A stretch of DNA of 13,710 nt from a virus (lineage: Duplodnaviria > Heunggongvirae > Uroviricota > Caudoviricetes), in the IMG/VR virus record IMGVR_UViG_2693429700_000003, positions 1 through 13,710 of that record. One strand, given 5' to 3'. A model generated the notes under the pieces. That model made no database searches and was not told the DNA's origin. It worked only from the letters and a program-made list of their open reading frames with translations. The number at the start of each line of letters is the position of its first letter. Position 1 is the stretch's first letter. The translations under genes and the position numbers were made by a program. Positions 1,054 to 13,710 of the stretch are shown piece by piece.

Positions 1054-1384
1054 ATTGATAACAGAGGGCGTTGCAGCGGGGTTGTCGCTTAAGCGTATGG
1101 TCAACCTGACAACCCGGTGTCCTCAACGGGGAAGGAATAACCCCGCCATACTTACCGCCGCGCCATTTCGCGGAGTGCCACAACCGGAAGCGCACGGTCG
1201 AACTAAATTTAACGACACCGTACAGAGAGACCAATTTCGCCGTGCGCTTTCGCGTTATGCCCTGACTTTTCAGGGACATATCCTTTCAGTAAACTGTCAG
1301 TGCCGGATGTTCACCCGTGTCCGGCGCACGCACTCCACCTGACCCGTGGAGAACTCCTTAATTACCAACCCTCAGGAGGGTGAA

Positions 1385-1663
1385 ATGGATAAAAAGCAAA
1401 TTGAGGCCCTGCAATCTATTATTGAAAAACAAGATGAAGCTATCAGGATTCTTTCATATCGCACTGATATGATACTAAATATGCTTTCTGCATTAACGGC
1501 TGCGCTTGGTGGTACAAAAACAAACGTATACCGCGAAGTTGTTATTCAACAGATAGATAAATTTGAAAAAACCATACCAGGTATTAATGCTCATCTTGCA
1601 GAACAAGAGAAAGACCATGCTCTTATGGCAATTTCTTCAGTAGCTCTCCCGAAAGTTGAGTAG
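1385..1663 (+). CDS. Hypothetical protein, 92 aa, predicted helical/coiled-coil; opposite orientation to the surrounding operon
   Basis: ATG at 1385 preceded by AGGAGGG 5 nt upstream (internal start of track ORF 1346..1663); AT-rich; no competing minus-strand ORF of 60 aa or more across 1280-1622; 3' end overlaps the convergent 137-aa gene by 41 nt. Confidence 0.55.
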   Translation: MDKKQIEALQSIIEKQDEAIRILSYRTDMILNMLSALTAALGGTKTNVYREVVIQQIDKFEKTIPGINAHLAEQEKDHALMAISSVALPKVE

Positions 1664-2036
1664 TTTTAATTGTTGTTTTGAAATAATCACTGCTTTCACA
1701 TTTGAGTGATTTCATGGCAATCCAAATGCGGGCCTCTGTGCCTGCATTTGGTTCCAGTTGCTGTAGACGTTTTGCGTCTTCCAAAAGTAAGGCGATAATG
1801 TGTTTCAGCTTCTCATCATTTGCTTGATTCTTGTTTTCAGGCGAATTCTGTCCGCCGAATAGGCGCTTCTCTTCATACAGACCTATAAAGGCACGACGCA
1901 CGTTACCGGATATAGTATCGATGGTTTCTTTTTCTACGGTACTCAGGTCAAGAGTCGCCAGTTGAGAGCGAACCACATTCGATGCCATTTCCTGGAATGG
2001 TACTGGTAAATCTTTAAATTCCATCGTCAACCTCAT
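1623..2036 (-). CDS. Hypothetical protein, 137 aa (133 aa if started at ATG 2024 with GAGG upstream); unknown function
   Basis: Track ORF; start ATG overlaps the stop of the upstream ydfA-like gene (ATGA at 2038-2034); AT-rich relative to flanks. Confidence 0.65.
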   Translation of the reverse strand: MRLTMEFKDLPVPFQEMASNVVRSQLATLDLSTVEKETIDTISGNVRRAFIGLYEEKRLFGGQNSPENKNQANDEKLKHIIALLLEDAKRLQQLEPNAGTEARIWIAMKSLKCESSDYFKTTIKTTQLSGELLKKLP

Positions 2037-2188
2037 CAGTCAGTGTTTCTGGTTAACCAGCGACGCGCGCCAGCTTCAGTTTTAAACGTTTTGCTTCTGG
2101 TATACGCCATCGCGGTAAACGTGCCGTCCTGGTTGGGAAACACGCCGTACACCAGAGATTCGTTGTTGCCAAGATCGATAGTATCCAT
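2036..2188 (-). CDS. Small protein, 50 aa, YdfA-like first gene of the repressor-controlled leftward operon
   Basis: Internal ATG (2188) of track ORF 2036..2281 with GAGG 5 nt upstream; the track's longer start at 2281 lies inside the predicted promoter/operator and has no RBS; product MDTIDLGNNESLVYGVFPNQDGTFTAMAYTRSKTFKTEAGARRWLTRNTD. Confidence 0.55.
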   Translation of the reverse strand: MDTIDLGNNESLVYGVFPNQDGTFTAMAYTRSKTFKTEAGARRWLTRNTD

Positions 2189-2265
2189 GCTGACCTCATT
2201 TCCCCTTAACGCCAGGGTAGCGGAACTGTTTGCTGAGAACACCGTGCGGTGTCTTGATGGGTGGT

Positions 2266-2320
2266 AATTTAGTTTTCTCATGAAGGTTGGTCAAGCGTTT
2301 TTAATGAGAAAACTCAATAT
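2266..2320 (-). promoter_or_regulatory. Leftward early promoter with repressor operators (dicB-operon promoter equivalent): -35 TTGACC (plus 2289-2294 complement), 17-bp spacer, -10 TAAATT (2266-2271 complement)
   Basis: 14-bp TGAGAAAACTCAAT at 2305-2318 is identical to the operator at 2839-2852 in the repressor/cro intergenic region; inverted partial copy at 2271-2283. Confidence 0.5.
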
Positions 2321-2379
2321 TTAATGCAAAATAAAGCCAATACATTGAAATGTAAGGCTTTAAAATTTGTGAAGGGGGG

Positions 2380-2787
2380 TTACTGATGTTTGTTACGTTT
2401 GCGAGCTTCTAGTAGCTCGGTGAATAGGCGATTAAAATTCTCAACGCGGGCACGGAGTTCGCTGATTTGTGCTTGCTGCTCTGATTTTGGAAGTGCGCGA
2501 TACAATCGCAACATCTCCAACTCATCTTCCGATAAGTCTAAGGCGCTGTTGAGTGCAACTGGTGGATCTGGTGTTTTATCCTCGTCACCAAACAGTATCC
2601 AAGTTGGTGAACATTGCAATACCTCAGCCAGGCGATGCAAATTTTGCCCACGCGGGGCTGTATGGTCGCTTTCCCATAGTGAAATTGATGAGCCAGATAC
2701 GCCAGCGGCTTTGCTTAAATCGTTTTGACTTAAACCAACCTGTTTGCGTCTTTCTCTAATTCGTTGACCTAAAGTTTTCTCGTTCAT
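2380..2787 (-). CDS. dicA: DicA-type HTH (Xre/cI-like) prophage repressor, 135 aa
   Basis: Track ORF; N-terminal HTH (LSQNDLSKAAGVSGSSISLWE); motif VLQCSPTWILFGDEDK matches my recollection of E. coli DicA; divergent from a cro-like gene with operators between them. Confidence 0.8.
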   Translation of the reverse strand: MNEKTLGQRIRERRKQVGLSQNDLSKAAGVSGSSISLWESDHTAPRGQNLHRLAEVLQCSPTWILFGDEDKTPDPPVALNSALDLSEDELEMLRLYRALPKSEQQAQISELRARVENFNRLFTELLEARKRNKHQ

Positions 2788-2864
2788 ATTTAGATATCTT
2801 AATAACCCTTGACTTGAGATTCCTTGAGTGATTACTATTGAGAAAACTCAATTTTGGAGGGGTG
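2788..2864. promoter_or_regulatory. Divergent immunity-switch region: rightward promoter (-35 TTGACT 2809-2814, -10 ATTACT/TACTAT 2831-2838) and operator half-sites TTGAG/CTCAA, including the palindrome TTGAGAAAACTCAA (2839-2852)
   Basis: Direct inspection; the palindrome sits between the -10 and the cro RBS GGAGG (2855-2859). Confidence 0.55.
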
Positions 2865-3092
2865 ATGTTTAAATCAGACGTAATTAATTTTTATGGGACG
2901 AAAGCCAAAGTAGCGAAAGCTGCTGGTGTTGATCCATCTGCTGTTTCTCAATGGGGGGAGCTGGTTCCTGAAGGTCGCGCGATGCGCCTGCAAGAGGCAT
3001 CCGGCGGGGAACTTCAGTACGACCCCAAAGTTTATGACGAATATCGTAAGGCAAAGCGGGCGGGGCGGTTGAACAATGAAAATCACCCCTGA
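2865..3092 (+). CDS. dicC: Cro-like HTH regulator, 75 aa (DicC-type)
   Basis: ATG 2865 with GGAGG 5 nt upstream (track ORF 2838..3092 begins at an upstream TTG); divergent from the repressor; C-terminal PEGRAMRLQEASGGELQYDP fits the DicC/Cro family as I recall it. Confidence 0.7.
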   Translation: MFKSDVINFYGTKAKVAKAAGVDPSAVSQWGELVPEGRAMRLQEASGGELQYDPKVYDEYRKAKRAGRLNNENHP

Positions 3093-3627
3093 ACAGGTTT
3101 GTGAGGCTCTGGATGCCTGGGTGTGCCGACCAGGAATGACACAGGAGCAGGCGACGATATTAATCACGGAAGCATTCTGGGCTCTGAAAGAACGCCCGAA
3201 CATCGATGTTCAACGCGTCACGTTTAATGATGGCGAGGTTGATCAACGGGCGCTGGGCGTTAACCGGGTGAAGATATTCGAACGCTGGAAAGCTATCGAC
3301 ACCAGGGATAAGCGGAAAAAATTCACGGCGCTGATTCCGGCAATTATGGAGGCTATCCGAATTAGTGATTTCAGGTTGTATCGTGAGATCAGTGATGGAA
3401 AAAGCATTACGTACATGATCGCCGGATTAAACAAAGAATATGGCGATGTGGTGGAGTCCGGGCTGCTTTTTGCGGATCCAGCTGTTGTGGAACGTGAGAC
3501 TGACGAGCTTATAGAAAAAGCTATTGCTTTCAAGCATGCGTATCGTCAGCAATATCAATATTACTTTGCAGATAAACAAATGTCTGCCAGGGGTTCGTAT
3601 GAGTATCGATGCACTACGATGGGCTAA
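3076..3627 (+). CDS. Hypothetical early protein, 183 aa, in the CII position (possibly a YdaT-like CII analogue; function unverified)
   Basis: Track ORF; start overlaps the cro-like stop and end overlaps the O-like start, so it is in the rightward early operon. Confidence 0.6.
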   Translation: MKITPEQVCEALDAWVCRPGMTQEQATILITEAFWALKERPNIDVQRVTFNDGEVDQRALGVNRVKIFERWKAIDTRDKRKKFTALIPAIMEAIRISDFRLYREISDGKSITYMIAGLNKEYGDVVESGLLFADPAVVERETDELIEKAIAFKHAYRQQYQYYFADKQMSARGSYEYRCTTMG

Positions 3628-4639
3628 AAAGGTGAAAACCGGCAGTTCATCCAGTAAGTCTGTATTGACCTGGCTTGCTGATATGTGCGGTGCCGATTTG
3701 TGTGCATACCCGTCTGTATCTGCACTGGCAGAAGTAACGGAACTAAACAAAAAGACTGTGCAGGACAGCTTACGACACCTGATGGAGATTGGGTTAATTG
3801 TTGATACCGGTGAGAGAAAAGGCAGAACAAAGCAAATTGTGGTGTACCGACTTATCGGTGTAGAAGAAAGTGTTGCCGAGCCTGAATACACCCAAAAACG
3901 GGAGTCTTTAAAGGTGGGTAAAATTGGCGCTGTTAATAAAAACAGTACCGAAAATGGTTATGTTTCAGCACAAAACAGACCCAAAAACGGAACTCTTAGC
4001 TGCATGGAAAATAACCAAAGACACCCAAATTTTCCATCAAAGACACCCAAAAACGGATCACGGAACCCAAAGGAACCCAAAGATCTAAACCCCACACATA
4101 ACGCACGCGAGAGTGCTCCGACCAGTGAGCAGGAAGTTTTGTCGTTACAGGCAGCACCCCTTGTATTCCTGTATGGCCTGAGCGAACCCATCGGAAAATT
4201 TCCGATGACCGATAGCTGGTATCCGTCACGGGATTTTCGACGACGGGCTGCGTTGTGGGGGATGGCTTTGCCGGAGACAGAATTTACACCTGCTGAACTT
4301 GCCGCCTTCCGGGACTACTGGGCAGCGGAGGGGAAAGTGTTTACGCAGATTCAGTGGGAGCAGAAATTCGCCCGTCACGTAAATCACGTCAGGGCGCAGG
4401 TTAAACCAGTCAGCAAGGGGGTAAACCATGCAGCAGCACCAGGTGGCACCGCATCACGGGCAGTTCAGGAAATTCGGGCAGCACGTGAGCAGTGGGAACG
4501 TGAAAACGGATTTATCAGCGACGGAAACGGTCTGGAAGCTGTGGGAACTCATGGGGGAGGTTTATTCGAACCGCTGGACCCAGAAGAACGGGGCCGCACC
4601 TTCGAAGCTCTGGATTGCACAGATTGGCGCGATGACTGA
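3599..4639 (+). CDS. Replication initiator (lambda O-like role): N-terminal DNA-binding region, iteron-bearing linker, DnaT-like C-terminal segment; 346 aa as an ORF, but the true C-terminus may be earlier
   Basis: ATG 3599 (internal start of track ORF 3524..4639); N-terminal MSIDALRWAKKV...SVLTWLADMCG; origin-like iterons inside the coding region; followed by a P-like gene; the last ~70 codons are low-complexity and overlap the P-like frame. Confidence 0.65.
   Translation: MSIDALRWAKKVKTGSSSSKSVLTWLADMCGADLCAYPSVSALAEVTELNKKTVQDSLRHLMEIGLIVDTGERKGRTKQIVVYRLIGVEESVAEPEYTQKRESLKVGKIGAVNKNSTENGYVSAQNRPKNGTLSCMENNQRHPNFPSKTPKNGSRNPKEPKDLNPTHNARESAPTSEQEVLSLQAAPLVFLYGLSEPIGKFPMTDSWYPSRDFRRRAALWGMALPETEFTPAELAAFRDYWAAEGKVFTQIQWEQKFARHVNHVRAQVKPVSKGVNHAAAPGGTASRAVQEIRAAREQWERENGFISDGNGLEAVGTHGGGLFEPLDPEERGRTFEALDCTDWRDD
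3888..4085. repeat. Iteron cluster / putative phage origin of replication inside the initiator gene
   Basis: Repeated (A)GACACCCAAAAACGG-type units at 3888-3902, 3977-3990, 4018-4030 (variant), 4041-4056, plus two short AACCCAAAG copies at 4064-4082; in lambdoid phages the ori lies within the O linker region. Confidence 0.6.
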
Positions 4640-5093
4640 GCAGCAAATCCGACAGGTCTGCCGCCAGTGCATGGACCGCTGCCGGGCGGGTGAAACATGG
4701 CCTCCGGACCTGGCTGAGTTTGTGGCACTGATTTCGGAAAGCGGAGCCAATCCATTCGGTCTGACGGTGGATGCTGTGATGGAGGAGTACCGCCGCTGGC
4801 GCAATGAGTCCTGGCGATATGACGGAAGTGATAAGTACCCGTGGTCTCAGCCTGTGCTGTATCACATTTGCCTCGAGATGCGTTCAAAGGGGATTGAGCG
4901 CCAGATGACCGAAGGGGAATTAAAACGGCTTGCAGAACGGCAGCTGGCGAAATGGGCAAAGCATGTTAGTAACGGCCTGAGCGTTCCGCCAGTCCGGCGA
5001 CAACTGGCGGCACCCAAACGCCCGTCGGGGCCAACGCCAATTGAGTTGCTGAAACAGGAATATGAACGCCGGAAAGCGGCTGGGTTTGTTTGA
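4428..5093 (+). CDS. Lambda P-like replication protein (helicase loader), 221 aa; alternative starts at 4551 or 4632
   Basis: Track ORF; GGGGG 7 nt upstream of ATG 4428; by-eye similarity to lambda P (YPWSQPVLYHICLEMR vs YPWKSNAHYWLVTNLY; ELKRLAERQL vs AELRRKAADEL); no Walker A motif, so not DnaC-like. Confidence 0.65.
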   Translation: MQQHQVAPHHGQFRKFGQHVSSGNVKTDLSATETVWKLWELMGEVYSNRWTQKNGAAPSKLWIAQIGAMTEQQIRQVCRQCMDRCRAGETWPPDLAEFVALISESGANPFGLTVDAVMEEYRRWRNESWRYDGSDKYPWSQPVLYHICLEMRSKGIERQMTEGELKRLAERQLAKWAKHVSNGLSVPPVRRQLAAPKRPSGPTPIELLKQEYERRKAAGFV

Positions 5094-5125
5094 GTTGAGA
5101 AGTAATTTTTACCGGGAGGAAATTT

Positions 5126-5887
5126 ATGGAGACTGTTTTTGACGCACTGAAAGCGATGGGAAAAGCCACGTCGGTAGAACTGGCTGCGCGACTTGATATC
5201 AGTCGTGAAGAAGTGCTGAACGAACTATGGGAACTGAAAAAGGCTGGTTTCGTTGATAAAAGCGCGTACACCTGGCGTGTGGCTTATAACAACGTTCAGC
5301 GGGAACAGCCAGCGTCGGCAGAACTGTCGGAAGAAACCACCACGGCAACAGTCGCTAAAATTTCGGAGAGCGATTTAACTGCGACGATTGAACAACGTGG
5401 CCCACAAACGGCGGATGAACTGGCTACGTTTTTCGGCATCACATCACGCAAAGTGGCTTCAACGCTGGCAATGGCAATCAGTAAAGGTCGTCTGATTCGC
5501 GTTAATCAGAACGGTAAATTTCGTTACTGCATGCCGGGCGATAATTTACCAGCAGAGCCGAAAGCTGCATCGGTAGCGGAAACTGATGGTAAAGCCTTTC
5601 CTCAGCCAGCCGGTGTTGCGTTACCAGTACAGGAAGCTGCAACACAGGAAGATATTAAAACAGAAACTGTGGCGGACATTGTGCAGTCGTTGCCATCGTT
5701 TACCGAAACGCAAGCAGATGAGCTGATTTTTCCGTCCCTGCGCAGGGCAAACCTGGCGCTGCGCAGGGCGAAAAGTGATGTTCAGAAGTGGGAGCGAGTC
5801 TGCGCCGCGCTGCGGGAGCTGAACAAGCACCGGGATATTGTTCGACAGATTACTGATTCTTCCCGCCGTGTTGTATCGGAAAAGTGA
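5126..5887 (+). CDS. Hypothetical protein, 253 aa, with winged-helix-like segments at the N-terminus and mid-protein
   Basis: Track ORF; GGGAGG 7 nt upstream of ATG. Confidence 0.7.
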
Positions 5888-5902
5888 TTGCCGGAGGCGC
5901 TT

Positions 5903-6325
5903 ATGGCAAAAGTATTTACACAAGAAGAGCGGGAAAAAATTAAAGGGCAGGTTGTTGAACTAGTACGCCGGAGTGGGCGCGAGATGTTACGGCAACTGGA
6001 AGCCAAGACAGGTGCGACAAGATATCTGATGAGCGTTCTCGCCAGAGAGCTGGTTGCCAGTGGCGATGTATACAACTCTGGTTACGGGTTATTCCCGTCT
6101 GAACAGGCTCGTAAGGACTGGCAAAATGCCCGCAAAAAACTATCTAGGGCAAAGGTGAAGAAACCATCTGTGGTTGATCCGGATCTTATCTGGTCATTAC
6201 CAGACGGAGAAATACGCCGCTACGACAGGCGTCTGAACATAATCTGTAGCGAGTGCCGGAAGAGCGAAGCTATGCAGCGTGTACTGGCTTTCTATCAGGG
6301 TAATTTTCAGAAGGTGCTGTTGTGA
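5903..6325 (+). CDS. Hypothetical protein, 141 aa
   Basis: ATG 5903 with GGAGG 5 nt upstream (track ORF 5888..6325 begins at an upstream TTG). Confidence 0.65.
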   Translation: MAKVFTQEEREKIKGQVVELVRRSGREMLRQLEAKTGATRYLMSVLARELVASGDVYNSGYGLFPSEQARKDWQNARKKLSRAKVKKPSVVDPDLIWSLPDGEIRRYDRRLNIICSECRKSEAMQRVLAFYQGNFQKVLL

Positions 6326-6430
6326 GCCAAATTAACAATCGGAACTTCGTGAAGAGAAAGCATAATCCAAATCTGAATAATTAAGTTCAGCACTGTAAAT
6401 AAAATTTAATCCTTAACTGGAGGTATATTT

Positions 6431-6643
6431 ATGTTAAATACACAGAAAGCCATTAATGCGGAAAAATATAACGAGTGGGCAAGAAAATTCTCTGAGCAGA
6501 TTTTTAAAATTACTGGCGATGAGAATGTGGCAAAAAATGAATTAGAACCGTGGACACCTGAAGGAAACGCACCAAATTATTGCTGGTGGGAGGTTGATCC
6601 GGTTGATGCTGCAAATGAAGCCATGAGTTACCACAACGATTAA
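6431..6643 (+). CDS. Hypothetical small protein, 70 aa, in an AT-rich moron
   Basis: Track ORF; TGGAGG 7 nt upstream of ATG; marked drop in GC relative to flanks. Confidence 0.6.
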   Translation: MLNTQKAINAEKYNEWARKFSEQIFKITGDENVAKNELEPWTPEGNAPNYCWWEVDPVDAANEAMSYHND

Positions 6644-6675
6644 TGTCGGGAGGCCGCCCGAAAGGGCGGTAAGAA

Positions 6676-6894
6676 ATGACTACATTATTCAGAAAAGAAT
6701 ATCCGCAAAAAAGTAGGGCGACAGAATTTTTGTTTCTCATTCTGTTTATCGTATTGATGATACCGATATCCCCTCTAATTTTTGTCTGGGCAATCGGGAA
6801 AATAATTGAGCCAGTTACTGAATTGTATACCGACGTTGTATGGGCGTCGTTCAACACACTGCACAATAAAATTAATCCGTATAAGGAAAACTGA
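6676..6894 (+). CDS. Small membrane protein, 72 aa (hydrophobic core FLFLILFIVLMIPISPLIFVWAIG)
   Basis: Track ORF; follows a GC-rich hairpin (6652-6670); stop lies 1 nt before the next ATG. Confidence 0.55.
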   Translation: MTTLFRKEYPQKSRATEFLFLILFIVLMIPISPLIFVWAIGKIIEPVTELYTDVVWASFNTLHNKINPYKEN

Positions 6895-6895
6895 T

Positions 6896-7159
6896 ATGGC
6901 AACTTTGACAAAAAAAGAACGGGCATGGTTAAACGAATTACAGGAAGTTCTTGATCGCTGTCCATCACCGAAAAAAATTGGCTTTTACACCATTGGCGAT
7001 AAAAGCATTTACCTGTATGACCTACGCCGCATGGATGAAATCATGGAGGCTCTTGATAATCGTTCGTCGATGGATTGGTGTGTTGCTGTTCATGATATGA
7101 ATGCAGGGTTTGATGAAAAGATTTTGTTCCCCTCATCAGTTGAAAGCACTGCGGGTTAA
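6896..7159 (+). CDS. Hypothetical protein, 87 aa
   Basis: ATG 6896 with AAGGAAAA upstream (internal start of track ORF 6806..7159). Confidence 0.6.
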   Translation: MATLTKKERAWLNELQEVLDRCPSPKKIGFYTIGDKSIYLYDLRRMDEIMEALDNRSSMDWCVAVHDMNAGFDEKILFPSSVESTAG

Positions 7160-7169
7160 GGAGTAACAC

Positions 7170-8039
7170 ATGACCACTATTACCAAAGAACGTATTGAAT
7201 TGTTCATTAAAAATCCGGTTGAAAACGGGCTTACCCGTGGTGAACAAATGGAACTGGCACGGATTGCGCTGGCATCGCTGGAAGCAGAGCCGGTGGCAAA
7301 GATTATAGCTCATTACCCATTAGGGGTTGACGTAGGCAAACAAAAATTCGTACAGGCCATTAGAGAGCTTCCTGACTTTGGCGGATATCTATTTGCCGCC
7401 CCTCCAGCGCCGATAGTGCCGGAAGAAATGTATTGGCAGGATGCGCCAGTTGAAGGCAGCAGCAAAGCGGCTGCATACGCTACAGGCTGGAACGATTGCC
7501 GCGAAGCCATGCTTCAGTCCGGAAACTTTCGGGAAAATAAAGATTCGTCAACCAATAATTTTCGGAAAATCCCGGAAGCGTCAACCAGCTCTCCGGTAAC
7601 TCCGGCTCTTCTGCCTGGTGGTTTCACCATTGAGGAGGCGAAGGAATTACATGAAGACCTGGTACGCAGCCACATAAGCAAGGCCTTAAGTGGCGAAAAG
7701 ATGAAAAAGAAAGATCGCGATGCTGATTTGCGCTGGATTCATGGCGTTATAGTTCAGGCAGCGTGGTTTGTAAAAGCATCACTGGAGCAGAATGCACTAT
7801 CGGGCAACTATCCGGTAACTCCGGATAGTTGGATAAGCTGTAGTGAGCGAATGCCGGATACCAAAACAGCCGTTCTTGTTGCCGTGGAGTTTGACAGGAA
7901 AGGTGACTGGCGAATGAAATGGGCGACTTACATCCCGGGTCATCCTGACGCTAATGATGGGTGGATAATTCCTGGTGCGTCGTGGAAACCGTCACACTGG
8001 ATGCCGCTACCAGAACCGCCGCAGGAGGTGCGCCAATGA
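7170..8039 (+). CDS. Prophage protein, 289 aa, with DUF551-like C-terminal domain (...SHWMPLPEPP)
   Basis: Track ORF; AAGGAG upstream; the C-terminal tryptophan/proline-rich signature is typical of DUF551 proteins of enterobacterial prophages. Confidence 0.7.
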   Translation: MTTITKERIELFIKNPVENGLTRGEQMELARIALASLEAEPVAKIIAHYPLGVDVGKQKFVQAIRELPDFGGYLFAAPPAPIVPEEMYWQDAPVEGSSKAAAYATGWNDCREAMLQSGNFRENKDSSTNNFRKIPEASTSSPVTPALLPGGFTIEEAKELHEDLVRSHISKALSGEKMKKKDRDADLRWIHGVIVQAAWFVKASLEQNALSGNYPVTPDSWISCSERMPDTKTAVLVAVEFDRKGDWRMKWATYIPGHPDANDGWIIPGASWKPSHWMPLPEPPQEVRQ

Positions 8040-8119
8040 ACTGGCCTGAAGCATTTGCAATTACAGGCGTTGCTATGGCTATCGCTTTTTTAGTATATGT
8101 TATTTGTCGGTGGGGGTAA
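8036..8119 (+). CDS. Tiny hydrophobic peptide, 27 aa (MNWPEAFAITGVAMAIAFLVYVICRWG)
   Basis: Not in the ORF track (too short); GGAGG 8 nt upstream; ATG overlaps the stop of the DUF551 gene (ATGA at 8036-8039); predicted single transmembrane helix. Confidence 0.45.
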   Translation: MNWPEAFAITGVAMAIAFLVYVICRWG

Positions 8120-8154
8120 AAACGTTCGCCGGGATTAACACCAAAGGAGGGAAT

Positions 8155-8259
8155 ATGTCGGATGATATATCACTGGCAATGGAAGGTGCGCTGGCTGTTG
8201 TTGCTGTTGTGGGCGTTTACTGCCTGGTTGTGTTTTTGATGGATCGACTAGGGAACTGA
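8155..8259 (+). CDS. Tiny hydrophobic peptide, 34 aa (MSDDISLAMEGALAVVAVVGVYCLVVFLMDRLGN)
   Basis: Not in the ORF track; AAAGGAGGG 4 nt upstream of ATG; predicted single transmembrane helix. Confidence 0.45.
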   Translation: MSDDISLAMEGALAVVAVVGVYCLVVFLMDRLGN

Positions 8260-8267
8260 ATTCATTA

Positions 8268-8289
8268 CGATATGGGAATTCCCATATCG
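8268..8289. repeat. Perfect 22-bp palindrome CGATATGGGAATTCCCATATCG (candidate protein-binding site or RNA hairpin)
   Basis: Direct inspection; centred on GAATTC; immediately downstream of the second tiny peptide ORF. Confidence 0.6.
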
Positions 8290-8448
8290 GGTAAAAACGG
8301 TTTGCGGGAAAAGGAGAGTTAAGTAGAATTGCTGCGGGTGCTTGAGGCTATCTGTCTCAGGCATGAACACCAAAAGGCAGATAGAGAAAAGCCCCAGTTA
8401 ACATTACGCGTCCGGCAAGACGCTTAACATTAATCTGAGGCCATATCT

Positions 8449-8655
8449 ATGCTCTACACACGTAGGTTAGCCTCTTACGGACCGAAAGGTCAAGGAGAAG
8501 CAGGCTATGAAGCAGCAAAAGGCGATGTTAATCGCCCTGATCGTCATCTGTTTAACCGTCATAGTGACGGCACTGGTAACGAGGAAAGACCTCTGCGAGG
8601 TACGAATCCGAACCGGCCAGACGGAGGTCGCTGTCTTCACAGCTTACGAACCTGA
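8449..8655 (+). CDS. mok-like overlapping reading frame (translation-coupling frame of a hok locus), 68 aa
   Basis: Track ORF; starts 58 nt upstream of hok and overlaps it out of frame, as mok does in hok/sok loci. Confidence 0.5.
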   Translation: MLYTRRLASYGPKGQGEAGYEAAKGDVNRPDRHLFNRHSDGTGNEERPLRGTNPNRPDGGRCLHSLRT

Positions 8656-8662
8656 GGAGTAA
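8507..8662 (+). CDS. hokD: Hok-family type I toxin (HokD/RelF-like), 51 aa
   Basis: Manual translation MKQQKAMLIALIVICLTVIVTALVTRKDLCEVRIRTGQTEVAVFTAYEPEE matches the Hok/Gef family as I recall it (hydrophobic helix then TRKxLCEVR motif); not in the ORF track (too short). Confidence 0.85.
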   Translation: MKQQKAMLIALIVICLTVIVTALVTRKDLCEVRIRTGQTEVAVFTAYEPEE

Positions 8663-8731
8663 GAGACCCGGCGAGGGAGAAATCCCTCGCCACCTCTGAT
8701 GTGGCAGGCATTCTCAACGCACCCGCACTTA

Positions 8732-8760
8732 ACCCGCTTCGGCGGGTTTTTGTTTTTATT
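8732..8760 (+). terminator. Rho-independent terminator at the 3' end of the hok mRNA
   Basis: ACCCGC-TTCG-GCGGGT hairpin followed by TTTTTGTTTTTATTTT. Confidence 0.75.
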
Positions 8761-8878
8761 TTCAACGCATTTGAAGTTCTGGACGGTGCCGGAATAGAAT
8801 CAAAAATACTTAAGTAGCGCGCAGGGATAAGAGGGATGGTCCCTTAAAGGGGAGAGCTAATTATCCGGAAGGATTCTG

Positions 8879-9130
8879 ATGATGAACATCGAAGAACTGC
8901 GTAAAATTTTTTGTGAAGATGGCCTCTATGCTGTGTGCGTTGAAAATGGAAATATTGTTAGTCATTACCGCATTGTGTGTTTGCAAAAAAATGGGGCTGC
9001 GTTAATTAATTTTGTGGATGCCCGAGTGACGGACGGATTTATCTTGCGCGACGGTGAGTTTGTCACTTCATTACAGGTATTGAAAGAGATCGGAATAAAA
9101 GCTGGCTTTTCTGCTTTTTCAGAAGAATAA
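8879..9130 (+). CDS. Hypothetical protein, 83 aa (same size and position as rem next to hokD in Qin; sequence identity unverified)
   Basis: Track ORF; GGAAGGA upstream. Confidence 0.6.
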   Translation: MMNIEELRKIFCEDGLYAVCVENGNIVSHYRIVCLQKNGAALINFVDARVTDGFILRDGEFVTSLQVLKEIGIKAGFSAFSEE

Positions 9131-9196
9131 ACTCATCTACAATCTTGCGCGGGGCTGAACTCCCGCTGAGTAACACCGTGCCACCGGAGAAAACCG

Positions 9197-9475
9197 ATGG
9201 CACGCAACGCAAAATATTACAAACATGATAATTCGACCGTTCTTGCCCACACGCACGAGCGGTATTCTCACGCATTTAAGTCAGACTGGTACCAGCATCC
9301 CCCATGCACTGAAGAACAGGCCGAATGGCTCATTCAGTGTTACCGCAGGCGCGGATGCGAGGTTAAAAAAGCCCTTAGCCTCGACTACCGTCACTGGATA
9401 ATCTCCGTCAGGCTGCCTTACTCCGAACGCCCACCGCGTCCGTCCCGCACATTCCAGCAACGCATCTGGAGGTAA
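9197..9475 (+). CDS. Hypothetical protein, 92 aa
   Basis: Track ORF; GGAGAAAA upstream of ATG. Confidence 0.55.
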   Translation: MARNAKYYKHDNSTVLAHTHERYSHAFKSDWYQHPPCTEEQAEWLIQCYRRRGCEVKKALSLDYRHWIISVRLPYSERPPRPSRTFQQRIWR

Positions 9476-9476
9476 C

Positions 9477-10535
9477 GTGCGGGTATTACTTCGACCTGTT
9501 CTGGTACCGGAACTCGGGCTGGTGATCGTTAAGCCGGGCCGTGAATCCATGCCGGTATTCCACAATACCCGGGTACTGGTGGAGCCGGAACCGAAAAGCA
9601 TGCGTAATCTGCCGTCCGGGGTCGTTCCTGCCGTTCGCCAGCCGCTGGCGGAGGATAAATCATTACTGCCATTTTTCAGCGACGAACGAGTGATTCGTGC
9701 TGCTGGTGGCGCTGGCGCACTGTCTGACTGGCTCCTGCGTCATGTCAAATCCTGCCAGTGGCCTCATGGTGACTACCATCACAGTGAAACCGTCATACAT
9801 CGTTATGGTACCGGCGCAATGGTGTTGTGCTGGCACTGCGACAACCAGCTGCGCGACCAGACCTCCGAATCACTCGGGCAACTTGCTCACCAAAACCTGT
9901 CTGCATGGATGATTGACGTCATACGCCATGCAATGAATGGCTCGCAGGAACGGGAATTATCGCTGGCTGAATTATCCTGGTGGGCGGTCCGCAATCAGGT
10001 GGCGGACGCGCTACCGGAAGCGGTATTACGTCGTTCGCTGGGGTTGCGTGCGGAAAAAATCCGCTCAATGTACCGTGAAAGCGACATCGTACCGGGAGAG
10101 CAGACCGCCACCAGCATACTGAAGCAGCGCACAAAAAATATTGCTCCGTTGCCTCACGCCCACCAGCAACAGAATCCACCACAGGAAAAGACGGTGGTCA
10201 GCATTGCCGTTGATCCGGAGTCACCGGCTCAGTATCTCCAGCGCCAGAAACCACAACGGGAAGATATGCCTGTATACACGCGTTGGGTAAAAACGCAGAA
10301 ATGCATGACGTGTGGCAATCAGGCAGATGATCCGCATCACATCATTGGTCATGGACTGGGAGGGATGGGAACAAAGGCTGATGATTTGTTTGTTATTCCG
10401 CTGTGCCGTAAATGCCATAGCGAACTACACGCCGGGGTAAAAGATTTTGAAGAAAAACACGGCAGCCAGCTGTTGTTGCTGATTCGTTTTTTAATGCACG
10501 CGAGAAATTCGGGTGTCCTGAAGTGGAAAGCATGA
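9477..10535 (+). CDS. DUF968-like prophage protein (YdfU-like), 352 aa, with C-terminal HNH/His-Me-finger-like motif
   Basis: Track ORF, GTG start with GGAGG 7 nt upstream; C-terminal CMTCGNQADDPHHIIGHGLGG...PLCRKCHSELH. Confidence 0.7.
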   Translation: MRVLLRPVLVPELGLVIVKPGRESMPVFHNTRVLVEPEPKSMRNLPSGVVPAVRQPLAEDKSLLPFFSDERVIRAAGGAGALSDWLLRHVKSCQWPHGDYHHSETVIHRYGTGAMVLCWHCDNQLRDQTSESLGQLAHQNLSAWMIDVIRHAMNGSQERELSLAELSWWAVRNQVADALPEAVLRRSLGLRAEKIRSMYRESDIVPGEQTATSILKQRTKNIAPLPHAHQQQNPPQEKTVVSIAVDPESPAQYLQRQKPQREDMPVYTRWVKTQKCMTCGNQADDPHHIIGHGLGGMGTKADDLFVIPLCRKCHSELHAGVKDFEEKHGSQLLLLIRFLMHARNSGVLKWKA

Positions 10536-10901
10536 ATGACTGAACGCATAGAATTTGTTTTGCCTTACCCGCCAACGGTGAACACTTACTGGCGACGTCG
10601 TGGCAGCACATATTTTGTATCAAAAGCCGGTGAGCGTTATCGCCGTGATGTGGCGCTTATTGTTCGCCAGCAGCGGCTGAAATTAAACCTGTCCGGAAGG
10701 CTGGCGATAAAGATTATTGCAGAGCCACCGGATAAGCGTCGTCGTGACCTGGACAATATCCTGAAAGCACCACTGGATGCGCTGACGCATGCCGGACTTC
10801 TCATAGACGACGAGCAGTTTGATGAAATCAATATTGTGCGCGGTCAGCTCGTTCCTGGGGGGCGGCTGGGCGTGAAGATTTACAAAATTGAGAGTGAGTG
10901 A
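10536..10901 (+). CDS. rusA: RusA Holliday-junction resolvase, 121 aa
   Basis: Track ORF; motifs PYPPTVNTYWRR and DKRRRDLDNILKAPLDALTHAG match my recollection of E. coli RusA; start overlaps the upstream stop. Confidence 0.85.
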   Translation: MTERIEFVLPYPPTVNTYWRRRGSTYFVSKAGERYRRDVALIVRQQRLKLNLSGRLAIKIIAEPPDKRRRDLDNILKAPLDALTHAGLLIDDEQFDEINIVRGQLVPGGRLGVKIYKIESE

Positions 10902-11452
10902 TCGTAAATATGATATATCCGGAAATTACAGGCAAAAGCGGCGAGCATTTACGTCTAAAAACGCTGGAAGCCGTCTGGATCCAGGGGAAATTACGGATGT
11001 GGGGGCGTTGGTCGTATATAGGTGGTGGCAAACCAGGAAATATGTTCAATCAGTTGCTGACATCCAAAAAACTGACAAAAACCGCGATCAATGAAGCCCT
11101 GCGTAGAATCAGGGAGTCAGGGATTGATAAACCAGAGCTGGAAGCATTCTTGCGAGAGATGATCGCTGGCAGACAGAAGAGCTGGTTGTCTCACTGTACT
11201 GATGCAGAGGCGTTACGCATTGATGGGGTGATAAGTAAAGCGCTTGCACGTTATCCTGGATTGATTGATATCCTGCGGCAAAGGTACGAAGGGCGGGGGA
11301 TGAGTAAACGCAAAATGGCTGAATTGTTGAATGAGGTTCACCCTGAGTGGTGCTATGCAACATGCCGCAATCGTATAGATATGTGGCTGAGAATAGCTGA
11401 GTTTATTCTGTATCCACTGATGCGAGATGCATTTTCTTTTACTGACGCTTAG
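10898..11452 (+). CDS. Late-gene antiterminator Q, 184 aa (alternative ATG at 10910)
   Basis: Track ORF (GTG start overlapping the rusA stop); lies immediately upstream of a promoter-plus-terminator region, the classic Q/PR'/tR' layout; family assignment is by position and size. Confidence 0.6.
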   Translation: MIVNMIYPEITGKSGEHLRLKTLEAVWIQGKLRMWGRWSYIGGGKPGNMFNQLLTSKKLTKTAINEALRRIRESGIDKPELEAFLREMIAGRQKSWLSHCTDAEALRIDGVISKALARYPGLIDILRQRYEGRGMSKRKMAELLNEVHPEWCYATCRNRIDMWLRIAEFILYPLMRDAFSFTDA

Positions 11453-11618
11453 AATCTGGAGGGCGTTTGTTGTTGCACGAAGAGGATTTTTGGCTGGTAG
11501 TAAGGTTTGTGCAGTTTTAGAAAAAAAGCTTGTATTTTTAGCCATAAACTGTTTCAATCCAGCTACGCTTCGCAAAGCTGTACCGCGAGGCGAATAGCAG
11601 ACATGGACACCTGAAAGA
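11453..11618 (+). promoter_or_regulatory. Putative late promoter PR' / Q-utilisation region (exact -35/-10 not resolved)
   Basis: 166-bp non-coding AT-rich segment between Q and a strong intrinsic terminator; candidate TTGNNN hexamers at about 11471 and 11508. Confidence 0.45.
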
Positions 11619-11641
11619 ACCCGCTTTATGCGGGTTTTTTT
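11619..11641 (+). terminator. Rho-independent terminator (tR' equivalent)
   Basis: ACCCGC-TTTAT-GCGGGT hairpin followed by TTTTTTT. Confidence 0.8.
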
Positions 11642-11764
11642 ATGCCTGAAAAACGGCACAGAACATTAAACGCGCTGGTTGTTGTGAATACTGGTCTTTC
11701 AGCTTGCTGGCTTTTTCGACAAGAGGTATTGGTATGTCACGTTAACCGGAAAAGGGAAAAAGGC

Positions 11765-11962
11765 ATGCTAAAACAGCAGGATATGACCGAAACCGCCAGA
11801 GTGGTGTTTAATGAATTAAGCGTCACCGAACCGGCGACCGTCGGGGAAATTGCGCAGAATACTGACCTTTCACGCGAACGCTGCCAGTTAATACTGACTC
11901 AGCTTGTTATGGCGGGTCTGGCAGATTATCAGTTCGGTTGTTACAGACGCCTTCCGCAGTGA
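11765..11962 (+). CDS. Small winged-helix-like DNA-binding protein, 66 aa
   Basis: Internal ATG (11765) of track ORF 11642..11962 with AGGGAAAAAGG upstream; the N-terminal extension from 11642 starts right after the terminator T-run without an RBS and looks non-protein-like. Confidence 0.5.
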   Translation: MLKQQDMTETARVVFNELSVTEPATVGEIAQNTDLSRERCQLILTQLVMAGLADYQFGCYRRLPQ

Positions 11963-12112
11963 AGGCTTTTTAATTTGTGGTAATGGGCGGCTGGTGGGTG
12001 TTAGCGGCACCTGCCAGCCATCTGCTCATGCGTTGGGGTCACAAGCAAACCTCAGGCCCATCTGCTTTGCGCAAAAGCGGTATGAGCCTATCAGAGAAGT
12101 GCTTATTGATCT

Positions 12113-13162
12113 ATGGCTAATACTGTAAAAATATCCAGTTGTGAGTTAATCAACGCTGATTGCCTGGAATTTATCCAGACCTTACCGGAAAATTCTGTCG
12201 ATCTGATAGTCACAGACCCGCCATACTTTAAAGTGAAGCCCGAGGGCTGGGATAACCAGTGGGAGGGCGACGATGATTACCTGAAATGGCTGGACCAGTG
12301 TCTGGCGCAGTTCTGGCGGGTACTGAAGCCTACCGGAAGTCTTTACCTGTTCTGTGGTCATCGCCTGGCATCTGACACCGAAATCATGATGCGTGAGCGC
12401 TTTAATGTGCTGAACCACATTATCTGGGCGAAGCCGTCCGGACGCTGGAACGGGTGCAATAAGGAAAGTCTGCGGGCGTATTTTCCGGCAACAGAGCGCA
12501 TTCTGTTTGCAGAACATTATCAGGGACCGTATCGCCCGAAAGATGATGGCTATGTGGAGCAGGGGCGCGAGCTAAAACAGCACGTCATGGCCCCGCTGAT
12601 TTCTTACTTTCGTGATGCGCGTAAATCACTGGGAATAACGTCAAAACAGATAGCGGAAGCCACCGGAAAGAAAAACATGGCTTCGCACTGGTTTGGTGCC
12701 AGTCAGTGGCAGTTACCGAACGAGGGTGATTACAATAAATTGCAGGCGTTGTTTGCGCGTGTTGCGGCAGAAAAACATCAGCGCGGGGAACTGGAAAAGC
12801 CACACCACCAGCTGGTCAGCACATACAGTGAGCTGAACCGGCAGTATACGGAACTGCTGAGTGAATATAAAAATTTGCGGCGGTATTTCGGTGTGACGGC
12901 GCAGGTTCCGTACACCGATGTCTGGACGCATAAACCGGTGCAGTACTATCCAGGGAAACATCCGTGCGAAAAACCGGCAGAAATGCTGCAGCAGATAATC
13001 AACGCGAGCAGTCGTCCGGGAGACCTGGTTGCAGATTTTTTTATGGGTTCAGGTTCAACGGTAAAAGCGGCGATGGCACTGGGGCGTTGTGCGATTGGTG
13101 TTGAGCTGGAGACCGGACGTTTTGAACAGACAGTCAGGGAAGTTCAGGATTTAATCGTTTGA
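12113..13162 (+). CDS. DNA methyltransferase, beta class (N6-adenine or N4-cytosine), 349 aa; no partner restriction endonuclease in the window
   Basis: Track ORF; motif IV TDPPYF near the N-terminus and motif I FFMGSGST near the C-terminus (beta-class order). Confidence 0.8.
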   Translation: MANTVKISSCELINADCLEFIQTLPENSVDLIVTDPPYFKVKPEGWDNQWEGDDDYLKWLDQCLAQFWRVLKPTGSLYLFCGHRLASDTEIMMRERFNVLNHIIWAKPSGRWNGCNKESLRAYFPATERILFAEHYQGPYRPKDDGYVEQGRELKQHVMAPLISYFRDARKSLGITSKQIAEATGKKNMASHWFGASQWQLPNEGDYNKLQALFARVAAEKHQRGELEKPHHQLVSTYSELNRQYTELLSEYKNLRRYFGVTAQVPYTDVWTHKPVQYYPGKHPCEKPAEMLQQIINASSRPGDLVADFFMGSGSTVKAAMALGRCAIGVELETGRFEQTVREVQDLIV

Positions 13163-13211
13163 AACGGATGAGATTGCAGAATTAATTACGCACCATTATT
13201 ATTCTGCTCCC

Positions 13212-13287
13212 GGCCCTTTAGCTCAGTGGTGAGAGCGAGCGACTCATAATCGCCAGGTCGCTGGTTCAAATCCAGCAAGGGCCACCA
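13212..13287 (+). tRNA. tRNA with CAU anticodon, ileX/ileZ-like (tRNA-Ile2 type read after lysidine modification; Met not excluded)
   Basis: Manual cloverleaf: acceptor GGCCCTT/AAGGGCC, D-arm TAGCTCAGTGGTGAGAGC, anticodon loop CTCATAA, T-loop GGTTCAAATCC, 3' ACCA; close to my recollection of E. coli ileX. Confidence 0.8.
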
Positions 13288-13288
13288 A

Positions 13289-13365
13289 CCGCCACTAGCT
13301 CATCAGGAAAGAGCGTCAACCCTTTAAGTTGAGTGTGCGAGGTTCGAGTCCCCGGTGGCGGTCCA
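13289..13365 (+). tRNA. tRNA of uncertain identity: anticodon loop CCUUUAA (UUU at positions 34-36, Lys-like, but with non-canonical C33)
   Basis: Manual cloverleaf: acceptor CCGCCAC/GTGGCGG (perfect 7 bp), D-stem GCTC/GAGC, anticodon stem TCAAC/GTTGA, T-arm with TTCGAGT loop and one mismatch, 3' TCCA; starts 1 nt after the preceding tRNA. Confidence 0.55.
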
Positions 13366-13367
13366 GT

Positions 13368-13443
<76 letters not shown>

Positions 13444-13446
13444 TAT

Positions 13447-13521
<75 letters not shown>

Positions 13522-13525
13522 GTTA

Positions 13526-13573
13526 GAGTCTTTCAGTCTGCGATGATGGGAAATCCCGGAGTGACTGAAAGAC
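13526..13573 (+). other. Structured element after the tRNA cluster: 11-bp inverted repeat GTCTTTCAGTC / GACTGAAAGAC around a 24-nt loop that itself contains GGGAAATCCC
   Basis: Direct inspection; possible processing site or terminator-like hairpin, but no clean U-tail. Confidence 0.4.
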
Positions 13574-13580
13574 GTTTAGG

Positions 13581-13653
13581 TTATGAATGATCGCTTTTTT
13601 TTGCAAAATTGCTGTGCAGAAATACTAACCTTCGGGCAGGCGATCATTCATAA
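13581..13653. repeat. Perfect 14-bp inverted repeat TTATGAATGATCGC ... GCGATCATTCATAA separated by 45 nt, with a T8 run next to the left arm
   Basis: Direct inspection. Confidence 0.5.
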
Positions 13654-13710
13654 GCACTCTGCTTTTATTCCGATTAACTGTGGGTGGTTTGTTGGATAGA
13701 GTGCTTTCCT

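Follow-up and report, generated by a model that had tools for sequence, protein, structure and literature searches.

Why should the first genes behind the antiterminator gene Q of a lambdoid prophage encode a small winged-helix (wH) protein and an orphan DNA methyltransferase (MTase), and how is the latter kept in check? The question is posed by positions 1 to 13,710 of IMG/VR virus record IMGVR_UViG_2693429700_000003 (Caudoviricetes), a stretch of 13,710 nucleotides (nt) that is referred to below as the window and covers the early-right and late-left part of a lambdoid Escherichia coli prophage. The module in question lies on the plus strand, as do all features described below unless marked otherwise, and consists of an intrinsic terminator, the small gene, a conserved leader, and the MTase gene, with a Q-like gene directly ahead and tRNA genes behind. 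A first-pass annotation, made from the letters alone, had singled out the orphan MTase and the small winged-helix-turn-helix (wHTH) gene as the first genes after the Q gene and its terminator, and that order is borne out. Gene identities, motif integrity, family membership, synteny behind Q, the terminator fold, and the leader structure are all computed here. Sequence comparison places the MTase in the known M.EcoGII family of prophage non-specific adenine MTases, and the module is quite probably a standard late-operon moron of lambdoid Enterobacterales prophages, expressed in dependence on Q and serving to hypermethylate progeny DNA against restriction. One part of it, the leader, is found in neither Rfam nor the literature and is apparently undescribed.

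The Methyltransferase and Its Family

The MTase gene (12113–13162) encodes 349 amino acids (aa) and is assigned to the beta-class N6-adenine enzymes by PF01555 and by its identity to M.EcoGII. In this class, motif IV (D/S-PP-Y/F) stands N-terminal to the S-adenosylmethionine motif I (FxGxG), and the target-recognition region separates the two. The window enzyme has this order (DPPY, residue 35; FMGSG, residue 310), and its open reading frame (ORF) is intact and without frameshift. The 349-aa beta-class protein described at first pass, with DPPY at the N-terminal and FxGxG at the C-terminal side, is thus present, and the motif disruption named there as a ground for giving up the proposal is not seen. 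Pfam PF01555 (N6_N4_Mtase) matches residues 29–340 with 154 bits (cutoff 26.7; E = 7e-45), the PADLOC model MTase_II matches with E = 3e-159, and the structural relatives in the Protein Data Bank (PDB) are M.RsrI, CcrM, and M.MboIIA. In the closest RefSeq relative, a prophage of E. coli TB4019 (L001, 15216–16264) with 99.7% DNA identity, the MTase is a frameshifted pseudogene.

Over its full length, the window MTase is identical to M.EcoGII at 316 of 349 positions (90.5%), which is a lower bound because the reference is a machine-read copy with a few errors, taken from supplementary Table S1 of PMC11551740. The two differ by ~30 substitutions, 12 of which fall in the target-recognition region (residues 160–237, 66 of 78 identical), and the activity of the window allele is a predicted one. 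Identity to the engineered ancestors from the SUPREM paper is 85% for Anc291 and 71% for SUPREM, so that by full-length similarity the enzyme falls within the clade of tested non-specific members. It shares with M.EcoGII and M.EcoGI, from prophages of strain O104:H4 C227-11 (Murray et al. 2018; available text of PMC5778455), the length of 349 aa, at least 90.5% identity, the succession of DPPY, target-recognition region, and FxGxG, a prophage location, and orphan status. On a viral contig that serves as proxy for the C227-11 locus (L136), the MTase is 96.9% identical to the machine-read M.EcoGII and has the same leader.

According to the available text of PMC5778455, M.EcoGII, encoded by a prophage of E. 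coli O104:H4, is a non-specific MTase that acts on adenine in any context in double- and single-stranded DNA and, more weakly, in RNA. The same text reports that M.EcoGI and M.EcoGII give no methylation signal in lysogens and are deleterious when expressed constitutively, and its authors propose that M.EcoGII is switched on at prophage excision, defeating restriction. Engineered relatives as distant as SUPREM are not site-specific (PMC11551740), homologues with ~93% similarity are labelled “nonspecific” in REBASE-based papers, and homologues yield no motif in the single-molecule real-time (SMRT) methylomes of lysogens. For the ST131 homologue M.EcoMV, which shares 99% identity with M.EcoGI, RT-PCR shows no transcription in the lysogen (PMC4659465), and M.EcoGII and Mu Mom are classed together in a 2025 review as enzymes that are both lysogen-silent and toxic (PMC12707154). 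The window MTase is itself prophage-borne and an orphan; lysogen silence is known only from the reports on M.EcoGI, M.EcoGII, and M.EcoMV.

Because the window MTase is at least 90% identical to M.EcoGII, and relatives at 71–85% identity are still non-site-specific, it is predicted to be non-specific and would methylate adenine in any context. The look-up of target specificity that was suggested at first pass, where the M.EcoGII family had gone unrecognised, would therefore return a REBASE-type “non-specific” and no target motif. By the same token, the absence of a methylation motif, which had been put forward as a refuting outcome, is the expected result for this family and would refute nothing.

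No restriction endonuclease (REase) is found in the window, as had been claimed, nor in the annotated 99.7%-identical prophage or by the PADLOC scan. The arrangement is also not that of a restriction-modification (R-M) system with a controller (C) protein, since no cognate REase lies beside the MTase or the HTH gene, and the genes downstream are tRNA and lysis genes.

Distribution and Gene Order

From the terminator through the first tRNA genes, the window is 88–90% identical in DNA sequence to phiP27, to 1720a-02, and to many Stx2a, Stx2c, and Stx2d phages, in which the module sits between Q and the tRNA/stx genes. Homology to the Stx phages begins inside the terminator, at ~11630; the Q gene and the promoter region are a separate mosaic unit. 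In phiP27 (L23–L24) and the 45-kb Stx2a, Stx2c, and Stx2d phages, gene order and spacing are those of the window module. These phages differ from the window in having a Q of the 933W/phiP27 type instead of DUF1133/PHROG 753, in carrying stx, which the window lacks, and in their tRNA set (Ile2-Arg-Arg versus Ile2-Lys-Thr-Gly). The module stands upstream of the tRNAs and stx in phiP27, Stx2a_WGPS2, and 1720a-02, the last of which is named in the available text of the M.EcoGII paper (PMC5778455), and upstream of the tRNAs and holin/lysis genes in a close E. coli relative (99.7%). A “regulator + DNA methylase” between q and the tRNAs has already been drawn or mentioned for Stx phages (PMC3491183, PMC8456039). 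The placement of the MTase behind Q is real, conserved, already described, and very common.

Of 5426 complete E. coli genomes, 2146 contain a match to a 700-nt probe spanning the small ORF, the spacer, and the 5′ end of the MTase gene, and a single genome can hold as many as 7 copies. When one genome per species is considered, the MTase lies ~150 nt downstream in 23 of 24 small-protein loci; the distance from the end of the small ORF to the MTase ATG is 150 nt in the window, and this spacing is constant in 25 genome loci. The hosts belong to more than 12 genera, among them Escherichia, Salmonella, Klebsiella, Citrobacter, Kluyvera, Buttiauxella, Enterobacter, Mixta, Scandinavium, Mangrovibacter, and Providencia. 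The Q-like genes upstream come from at least four PHROG families (753, 304, 127, and 79), and the MTase is an orphan in all ~200 loci examined, always at the same phage position.

The Q Gene, the Candidate Promoter, and the Terminator

The gene immediately upstream of the module (10910–11452) encodes a Q-like antiterminator (DUF1133/PHROG 753), a distant relative of phage 21 Q by profile matches. Its ORF opens at 10898, and a start equivalent to 10910 is annotated in RefSeq relatives. Matches are strong to Pfam DUF1133 (E = 3e-101) and to PHROG 753, “anti-termination protein Q-like” (E = 9e-79), marginal to Pfam Phage_antitermQ (27.6 bits, cutoff 26), and weak to the Q21 structures 6P18 and 6JNX (E ~0.009). 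PADLOC and NCBIfam return nothing for this gene or for the small protein.

As far as can be read from the DNA, the layout behind the Q gene is that of pR′–tR′. The promoter candidate (11530–11558), recognised in a three-locus alignment, comprises a −35 element TTGTAT (11530–11535), a 17-nt spacer, and a TGn-extended −10 element TTCAAT (11553–11558), followed by a conserved initial transcribed region, GCTTnGCAAAGCTG. The same block occurs at the same position in three loci with a PHROG 753 Q, namely the window, Buttiauxella (L021), and Scandinavium (L027), the latter two having TTGAAA, a 16-nt spacer, and AATAAT; in all three, the terminator lies ~75–85 nt beyond the block. These features suggest a pR′-like promoter. 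The tR′-like intrinsic terminator (11613–11641) is formed by CCCGC/UUUAU/GCGGG and a run of seven U residues. The RNA fold of 11530–11660 contains this hairpin (−41.5 kcal/mol, z = −4.0), which the consensus terminator scanner missed, and a hairpin with a U-run occupies the terminator position in nearly all related loci, with stems that differ in sequence. Of the PR′–tR′ promoter and terminator proposed at first pass, the terminator is thus clear, and the promoter is a candidate seen by three-way alignment alone. No Q-binding or pause element can be identified independently behind the Q gene, and the probable Q-dependence of module expression is read from position.

A short RNA of ~80 nt is predicted to run from the candidate promoter to the terminator. 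The layout resembles lambda pR′–6S RNA–tR′, StxS of the Stx phages, and IsrK of Gifsy-1, in each of which Q is followed by a short RNA that ends at an intrinsic terminator, and late genes or morons come next (PMC7547250, PMC4825925). The gene for IsrK, a small RNA (sRNA), directly follows the Q-like gene of Salmonella Gifsy-1 (PMC4825925). In the window, 11567–11640 matches Rfam isrK below threshold (21.6 bits, E = 0.026, against a gathering score of 50 bits), and the region of the predicted short transcript also has a sub-threshold match to AgrB (27.1 bits). Both matches, on 11538–11643, are dominated by the terminator hairpin and are not taken as family membership; isrK serves as a positional analogy only. 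The transcription start of the window RNA is a predicted one.

Between the terminator and the small ORF, a conserved non-coding block (11703–11740; CTTGCTG...N...CAAGAGGTATTGGTATGTCAC) is kept in 26 of 26 aligned loci, and the sequence from the terminator to the block is variable or absent. As a sigma-70 promoter, the block is unconvincing because its −10-like hexamers lack the key T at −7. In a slightly longer form of the block (11703–11746; CTTGCTG...GTATTGGTATGTCAC), an ATG opens a mini-ORF of three codons in the window (ATG TCA CGT TAA). In some relatives this ATG is in frame with the small ORF, which accounts for annotations of 72–74 aa.

The Small Winged-Helix Protein

The small gene (11765–11962) has a good Shine-Dalgarno sequence (AAGGGA, 8 nt upstream) and encodes a stand-alone winged-helix protein, identified by PHROG 331 and AlphaFold2 and named “TrmB family transcriptional regulator” by NCBI. 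The winged helix proposed at first pass is upheld by the predicted fold, and the length is corrected from 66 to 65 aa. The protein matches PHROG 331, for which no function is assigned, with E = 2e-36; its 331 homologues all come from Enterobacterales and are mostly 63–65 aa long. Conservation by codon position is 0.79/0.82/0.57, which indicates that the ORF is translated. A longer reading of 106 aa, from an ATG at 11642 in the terminator U-run, was rejected, since the 41 extra codons have an identity of 0.57 and are broken by indels or absent in relatives; the stretch 11647–11764 as a whole is poorly conserved and rich in indels.

The AlphaFold2 model (pLDDT 87.8) is a winged helix in which H1-H2-H3 are followed by a beta-hairpin. 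Foldseek finds MarR/IclR-type wH domains (TM ~0.8); against the PDB, it returns only generic winged helices (E ~2e-3), including the wH dimerisation domains of O-methyltransferases, and yields no functional assignment. The TrmB Pfam PF01978 scores 20.8 bits, below its cutoff of 25.6. The NCBI name therefore rests on weak similarity, and what the model supports is a generic wHTH fold. Helix 3 is the usual recognition helix of the winged-helix fold. In the small protein, helix 3 (CQLILTQLVMAGL) and the N-terminus MLKQQDMT are essentially unchanged in members with 53% overall identity, which points to a conserved nucleic-acid target. Only two cysteines are conserved.

The wHTH ORF and the MTase are both present around 179 of the 192 leaders with sufficient flanking sequence. 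In ~9 loci, an unrelated ORF stands upstream of the leader instead; in these viral-contig loci (L045, L084, L113, L127, and ~5 others), it is ~95 aa long, ends in ...VETITD or ...VDTIGN, has no PHROG match, and is followed by the leader and the MTase as usual. The small protein is thus a habitual, not an obligatory, partner of the MTase. The earlier suggestion that it could be a dedicated regulator gains from the co-occurrence and loses from the loci with another ORF and from one truncated copy, in Mangrovibacter yixingensis (L026, 4001–4070), where the small ORF ends at codon 22 and the MTase is intact. At a further locus (L022, 4177–4300), the small ORF is kept, the leader is decaying, and the MTase is lost.

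A hairpin spans the stop codon of the small ORF (11949–11976; GCCUUC-CGCAGU-GAAGGC, then UUUUUAAUUU) and was picked up by the terminator scan. It is preserved by compensatory changes in other genera (GCCUCC/GGGGGC, GCUGCC/GGCAG).

A Structured Leader Ahead of the Methyltransferase

The ~130 nt ahead of the MTase start codon (11982–12112) form a conserved structured 5′ leader, as judged by alignment, covariation, and folding. In a 26-locus alignment, the leader is the most conserved stretch of the module, above both genes, with a mean pairwise identity of 0.82 and 54 of 134 columns invariant; the comparison values are 0.53 for MTase third codon positions and 0.57 for the region upstream of the small ORF. 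It occurs in the loci L002–L028 and in more than 150 viral-contig loci. A pattern search of viral contigs gave at least 120 loci and, together with a second search, 95 unique versions, 74 of which entered the covariation analysis. Each unique version ends 141–147 nt before an M.EcoGII-like ATG. The leader is non-coding, as 1-nt indels differ between lineages; the same indels break the frame of a 47-aa GTG ORF (11977–12120) that overlaps the MTase start, and this candidate coupling peptide, which has no PHROG match, was rejected.

The window leader folds with −63 kcal/mol (z = −4.0). Its hairpin P2 (11989–12019; 12–14 bp in the fold) forms in 39 of 39 sequence variants with many compensatory changes, such as GGCUGGUGGG/CCUGCCAGCC versus GACUGUAAAGG/CCUUUACAGUC. 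The remaining segments are S1 AUGGGC (11983–11988), S2 GCUCAUG (12024–12030), S3 GGUCACAAGC (12037–12046), S4 GGCCCA (12055–12060), the P4 hairpin (12062–12080), S5 UGAGCC (12083–12088), S6 GCUUAU (12101–12106), and S7 UGAUC (12107–12111), and they can adopt two mutually exclusive pairings. In fold B, S1 AUGGGC pairs with S2 GCUCAU, and S3 GGUCA..AAGC pairs with S6/S7 GCUU..UGAUC, that is, with positions −13 to −1 before the AUG. In fold A, S1 pairs with S4 GCCCA, S2 with S3, and S5 with S6, so that UGAUC and the AUG stay free. Most sequences have fold B as their minimum-free-energy fold, and its mean energy of −55.7 kcal/mol, against −50.9 kcal/mol for fold A, makes it on average 4.8 kcal/mol more stable.

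Over the 74 sequences, 97.7% of cells are paired in fold B, and 6 of its pairs have changed on both sides; for fold A, the figures are 89.7% and 7 pairs. Slid controls reach ~35% paired, and the observed covariation is reached by no shuffle, these statistics being drawn, as the tool itself cautions, from closely related sequences. Column 58–82 (UA 28, CG 24, AU 16) supports S2:S3, column 71–149 (AU 34, GC 14, GU 12) supports S3:S7, and in Providencia-type leaders S2, S3, and S6 change together. The helix next to the start codon, P6, takes in −1 to −6 and −9 to −13; across the 74 sequences, its pairing amounts to 96.5%, with 4 pairs changed on both sides. In the window ensemble, positions −1 to −13 have a probability of being unpaired of at most 0.15 (at least 85% paired), except for −7 and −8. 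The MTase start has no recognisable Shine-Dalgarno sequence. The predicted structure suggests that the leader gives translational control, perhaps as in Mu com-mom, and it would then limit translation of the MTase.

Near-invariant G·U pairs (columns 120–141, GU 71/74; 18–61, GU 68/74; 73–147, GU 59/74) place the structure on the plus strand. The energy of the whole leader does not discriminate between the strands (−56.4 versus −53.6 kcal/mol). A DNA palindrome or operator is disfavoured because the invariant G·U pairs would not match in DNA or in RNA of the opposite strand. The region upstream of the MTase, which the first-pass annotation had singled out for binding assays with the small protein, does hold a strongly conserved element, although one that looks like RNA structure and not like an operator. 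An extended −10-like sequence at the 5′ edge of the leader, TGTGAAAAT, was considered as an MTase promoter and disfavoured, as its key A at position 2 is unconserved (GGTAAT in E. coli) and a start there would also remove the invariant, paired S1.

Rfam has no match to the leader at the gathering score, and permissive E values (up to 5 or 10) give only a chance miRNA match of 14.7 bits. A full-text literature search with the most conserved 15-mers of the leader found nothing relevant, and neither the upstream small ORF nor the leader is described in the available M.EcoGII text of PMC5778455. The anti-sRNAs AsxR and AgvB of enterohaemorrhagic E. coli (EHEC) were ruled out as identities of the leader, since they are located elsewhere, 3′ of the moron.

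An invariant GATC, a Dam site, precedes the MTase start codon by 2 nt (12107–12112). Its region pairs in the RNA with GGUCA (12037–12041), and 13 of the 74 leaders have GAUCA there, which makes a second GATC; Dam methylation is known to matter at Mu mom.

Resemblance to Mu com-mom

In Mu-like prophages, the genes for non-specific adenine MTases, Hin1523 and Hia5 among them, stand behind those for Com homologues (Drozdz et al. 2012; PMC3299994), and in Mu com-mom itself, Com opens an mRNA structure that occludes the start of the enzyme gene (PMC6483171, PMC3299994). The window module is like com-mom and com-hin1523/nma1821/hia5 in placing a harmful, late, broadly adenine-modifying anti-restriction enzyme after a small regulator gene, which lies directly upstream on the same transcript. 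It is also like com-mom in that mRNA structure sequesters the start region, in the window by computation only. The systems differ in that the window small protein is a 65-aa winged helix and Com is a four-cysteine zinc finger, in that the window genes are separated by a spacer of ~150 nt instead of overlapping, and in that the window module is lambdoid and presumably under Q, whereas Mu mom is under C, Dam, and OxyR. The small protein, with its two conserved cysteines, lacks the Com-type Cys4 zinc finger and has no Com-like Pfam or PHROG match. It is not a member of the Com family and could at most work similarly; the resemblance is one of architecture only, without homology.

Alternative Explanations

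Several readings of the small protein, the leader, and the enzyme compete. One of them takes the leader as an undescribed cis-regulatory RNA and the co-transcribed winged-helix protein as its translational activator: once bound, the leader would pass from the closed fold B, in which the start is occluded, to the open fold A, and the toxic MTase would be made only once its small partner has accumulated. We regard this as possible and rather doubtful. It would explain the position of the small gene directly upstream of a harmful broad-specificity DNA modifier, as in Mu com-mom and com-hin1523/hia5 (PMC3299994, PMC6483171), the maintenance of both exclusive folds, with the co-change of S2, S3, and S6 in Providencia-type leaders, the greater stability of the fold that buries −1 to −13, and the lack of a recognisable Shine-Dalgarno sequence at the MTase. 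The near-invariance of the putative recognition helix and the leader, while the rest of the small protein drifts to 53% identity, and the joint presence of small ORF and leader in 179 of 192 cases point the same way. What tells against it is the winged helix itself, which is not a Com zinc finger and whose RNA binding is putative, together with the ~9 loci (~5%) that combine leader and MTase with an unrelated upstream ORF and the locus with a truncated small ORF and an intact MTase. Moreover, support for fold A comes from few independent events among closely related sequences, and a single structure plus chance could account for both folds. A better candidate, though one that still falls somewhat short of probable, is that the protein is a conventional DNA-binding transcription factor or a moron in its own right, with the leader acting as a constitutive damper or an RNase III/processing site that needs no protein partner. 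The factor could act on promoters of the host or the phage, or on the conserved non-coding block (11703–11740) that shortly precedes its own gene; its nearest folds are MarR/IclR-type DNA-binding wH domains, NCBI and the Stx-phage papers both name it a transcriptional regulator, ~5% of loci keep the leader in its absence, and the near-perfect P1′-P2 helix of ~20 bp resembles, in our judgement, RNase III substrates. This reading is weakened by Foldseek matches that are to generic wH domains at E of only ~2e-3, by the lack of an evident palindromic operator in the upstream block, and by the fixed-distance linkage to the MTase across genera, which argues for a functional connection.

The two remaining readings concern the enzyme. 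That it is a sequence-specific orphan MTase for lysogen epigenetics, similar to Dam or CcrM, or the remnant of a lost R-M system, is very improbable: it shares the beta class with CcrM and many Type II MTases and is an orphan with no REase nearby, but it is at least 90% identical to an enzyme that acts on any adenine, its homologues are motif-less in lysogen SMRT methylomes and untranscribed, it sits behind terminators in a late operon, and it is an orphan at the same phage position in ~200 loci. Hardly more credible is the idea that RNA, be it late mRNAs, phage tRNAs, host rRNA, or its own leader, and not phage DNA is the relevant substrate. The MTase gene does often adjoin phage tRNA genes; N6-methyladenine weakens A–U pairs, and feedback on the A/U-containing helix P6 is possible in principle. 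In vitro, M.EcoGII methylates single-stranded RNA and RNA:DNA hybrids (available text of PMC5778455), but the RNA activity of the native enzyme is ~100-fold lower than that on DNA (V0 0.12 versus 11.1; supplementary table of PMC11551740), and most loci outside E. coli lack the tRNA cluster or have it elsewhere.

Proposed Course of Events and Points That Weigh on It

The reading that we prefer, a late-operon moron that methylates progeny DNA, can be set out as follows. In the lysogen, constitutive transcripts from the pR′-like promoter would end at the hairpin and U7 run of 11613–11641. Leak-through would be suppressed by the second hairpin with its U-run after the small ORF (11949–11976) and by the closed leader, which would pair the bases ahead of the AUG, so that the toxic MTase would be kept off. 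Upon induction, Q would load onto RNA polymerase at pR′, and the modified polymerase would read through both hairpins into the small ORF, the MTase gene, the tRNA genes, and the lysis and morphogenesis genes. The MTase could then methylate the adenines of replicating phage DNA regardless of sequence, and progeny would be shielded, on entering the next host, from restriction of Types I, II, and III. At this stage its toxicity would be harmless, as killing the current host no longer matters. Non-specificity, lysogen silence, and toxicity are carried over in this scheme from the literature on near-identical enzymes, and the timing of expression and the anti-restriction benefit are what one would expect from them and from the position of the gene. 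The two functions first suggested for the MTase fare differently: anti-restriction agrees with the published view of M.EcoGI and M.EcoGII, and epigenetic control in the lysogen is unlikely because the enzyme methylates every adenine and lies behind two hairpins and an occluded start.

Some points weigh against this course of events. DNA of a plasmid modified by M.EcoGII transforms E. coli 10^4–10^5-fold worse (available text of PMC5778455), so heavy adenine methylation may carry a cost. The frameshift in the 99.7%-identical relative implies that the MTase is dispensable for prophage maintenance. A consensus promoter scan at default thresholds calls nothing in 11453–11640, and the promoter candidate is thus weak by consensus. 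Finally, the hairpin at the stop codon of the small ORF is terminator-like in the E. coli lineage and lacks the U-run in some genera, and is therefore not a universal terminator.

Significance

By itself, the module adds a further representative of a familiar enzyme family at its customary genomic position and matters little. M.EcoGII is, however, in wide use as a reagent and serves as a model “ancestral” beta-class MTase whose silencing and activation in the phage have so far been guessed at, and the arrangement of terminator, small ORF, hairpin, and leader offers concrete, mutable elements for its control. The module occurs in ~40% of complete E. coli genomes, often in multiple copies, and in Stx phages it stands between Q and stx; its transcription or processing may for this reason bear on toxin expression. 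Were the leader and the wHTH protein to form a switch, unrelated phages would have converged on the logic of a small activator and an occluded start for toxic anti-restriction enzymes. The pair would then be a lambdoid, non-homologous counterpart of Mu Com/mom that times a lethal pan-adenine MTase, and the small protein would have RNA as its target, which is uncommon for a bacterial wHTH protein that stands alone.

Neighbouring Elements

Four tRNA genes follow the MTase (13212–13521; ARAGORN, Rfam, and a RefSeq relative), with the anticodons CAT (Ile2 in relatives), TTT (Lys), TGT (Thr), and TCC (Gly). Among loci, the tRNA clusters vary in that they come after the module, come before it, or are absent, and they are absent or elsewhere in most non-E. 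coli loci. The second tRNA (Lys, TTT; 13289–13365) scores 44 bits against Rfam tRNA, compared with 65–74 bits for its three neighbours, and a related locus (L014) also has an aberrant tRNA at this position.

Just after the tRNA cluster lie two long inverted repeats with no Rfam match at E up to 1, at 13527–13575 (AGTCTTTCAGTC...GACTGAAAGAC) and at 13581–13653 (TTATGAATGATCGC...GCGATCATTCATAA), the latter with a T8 run just after its first arm. Their position is where EHEC prophages carry the convergent anti-sRNA genes (AsxR/AgvB).

Ahead of the segment from Q to the tRNAs, the window holds DicF, dicB-side genes, hok/sok, a DUF968 gene, and RusA. The sok antitoxin RNA (8336–8509, plus strand; 109.5 bits) adjoins a hokD-type ORF, and the DicF sRNA (1001–1052) is on the minus strand with 76.7 bits. 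Both sok/hokD and DicF are ordinary parts of Qin/Rac-type lambdoid prophages.

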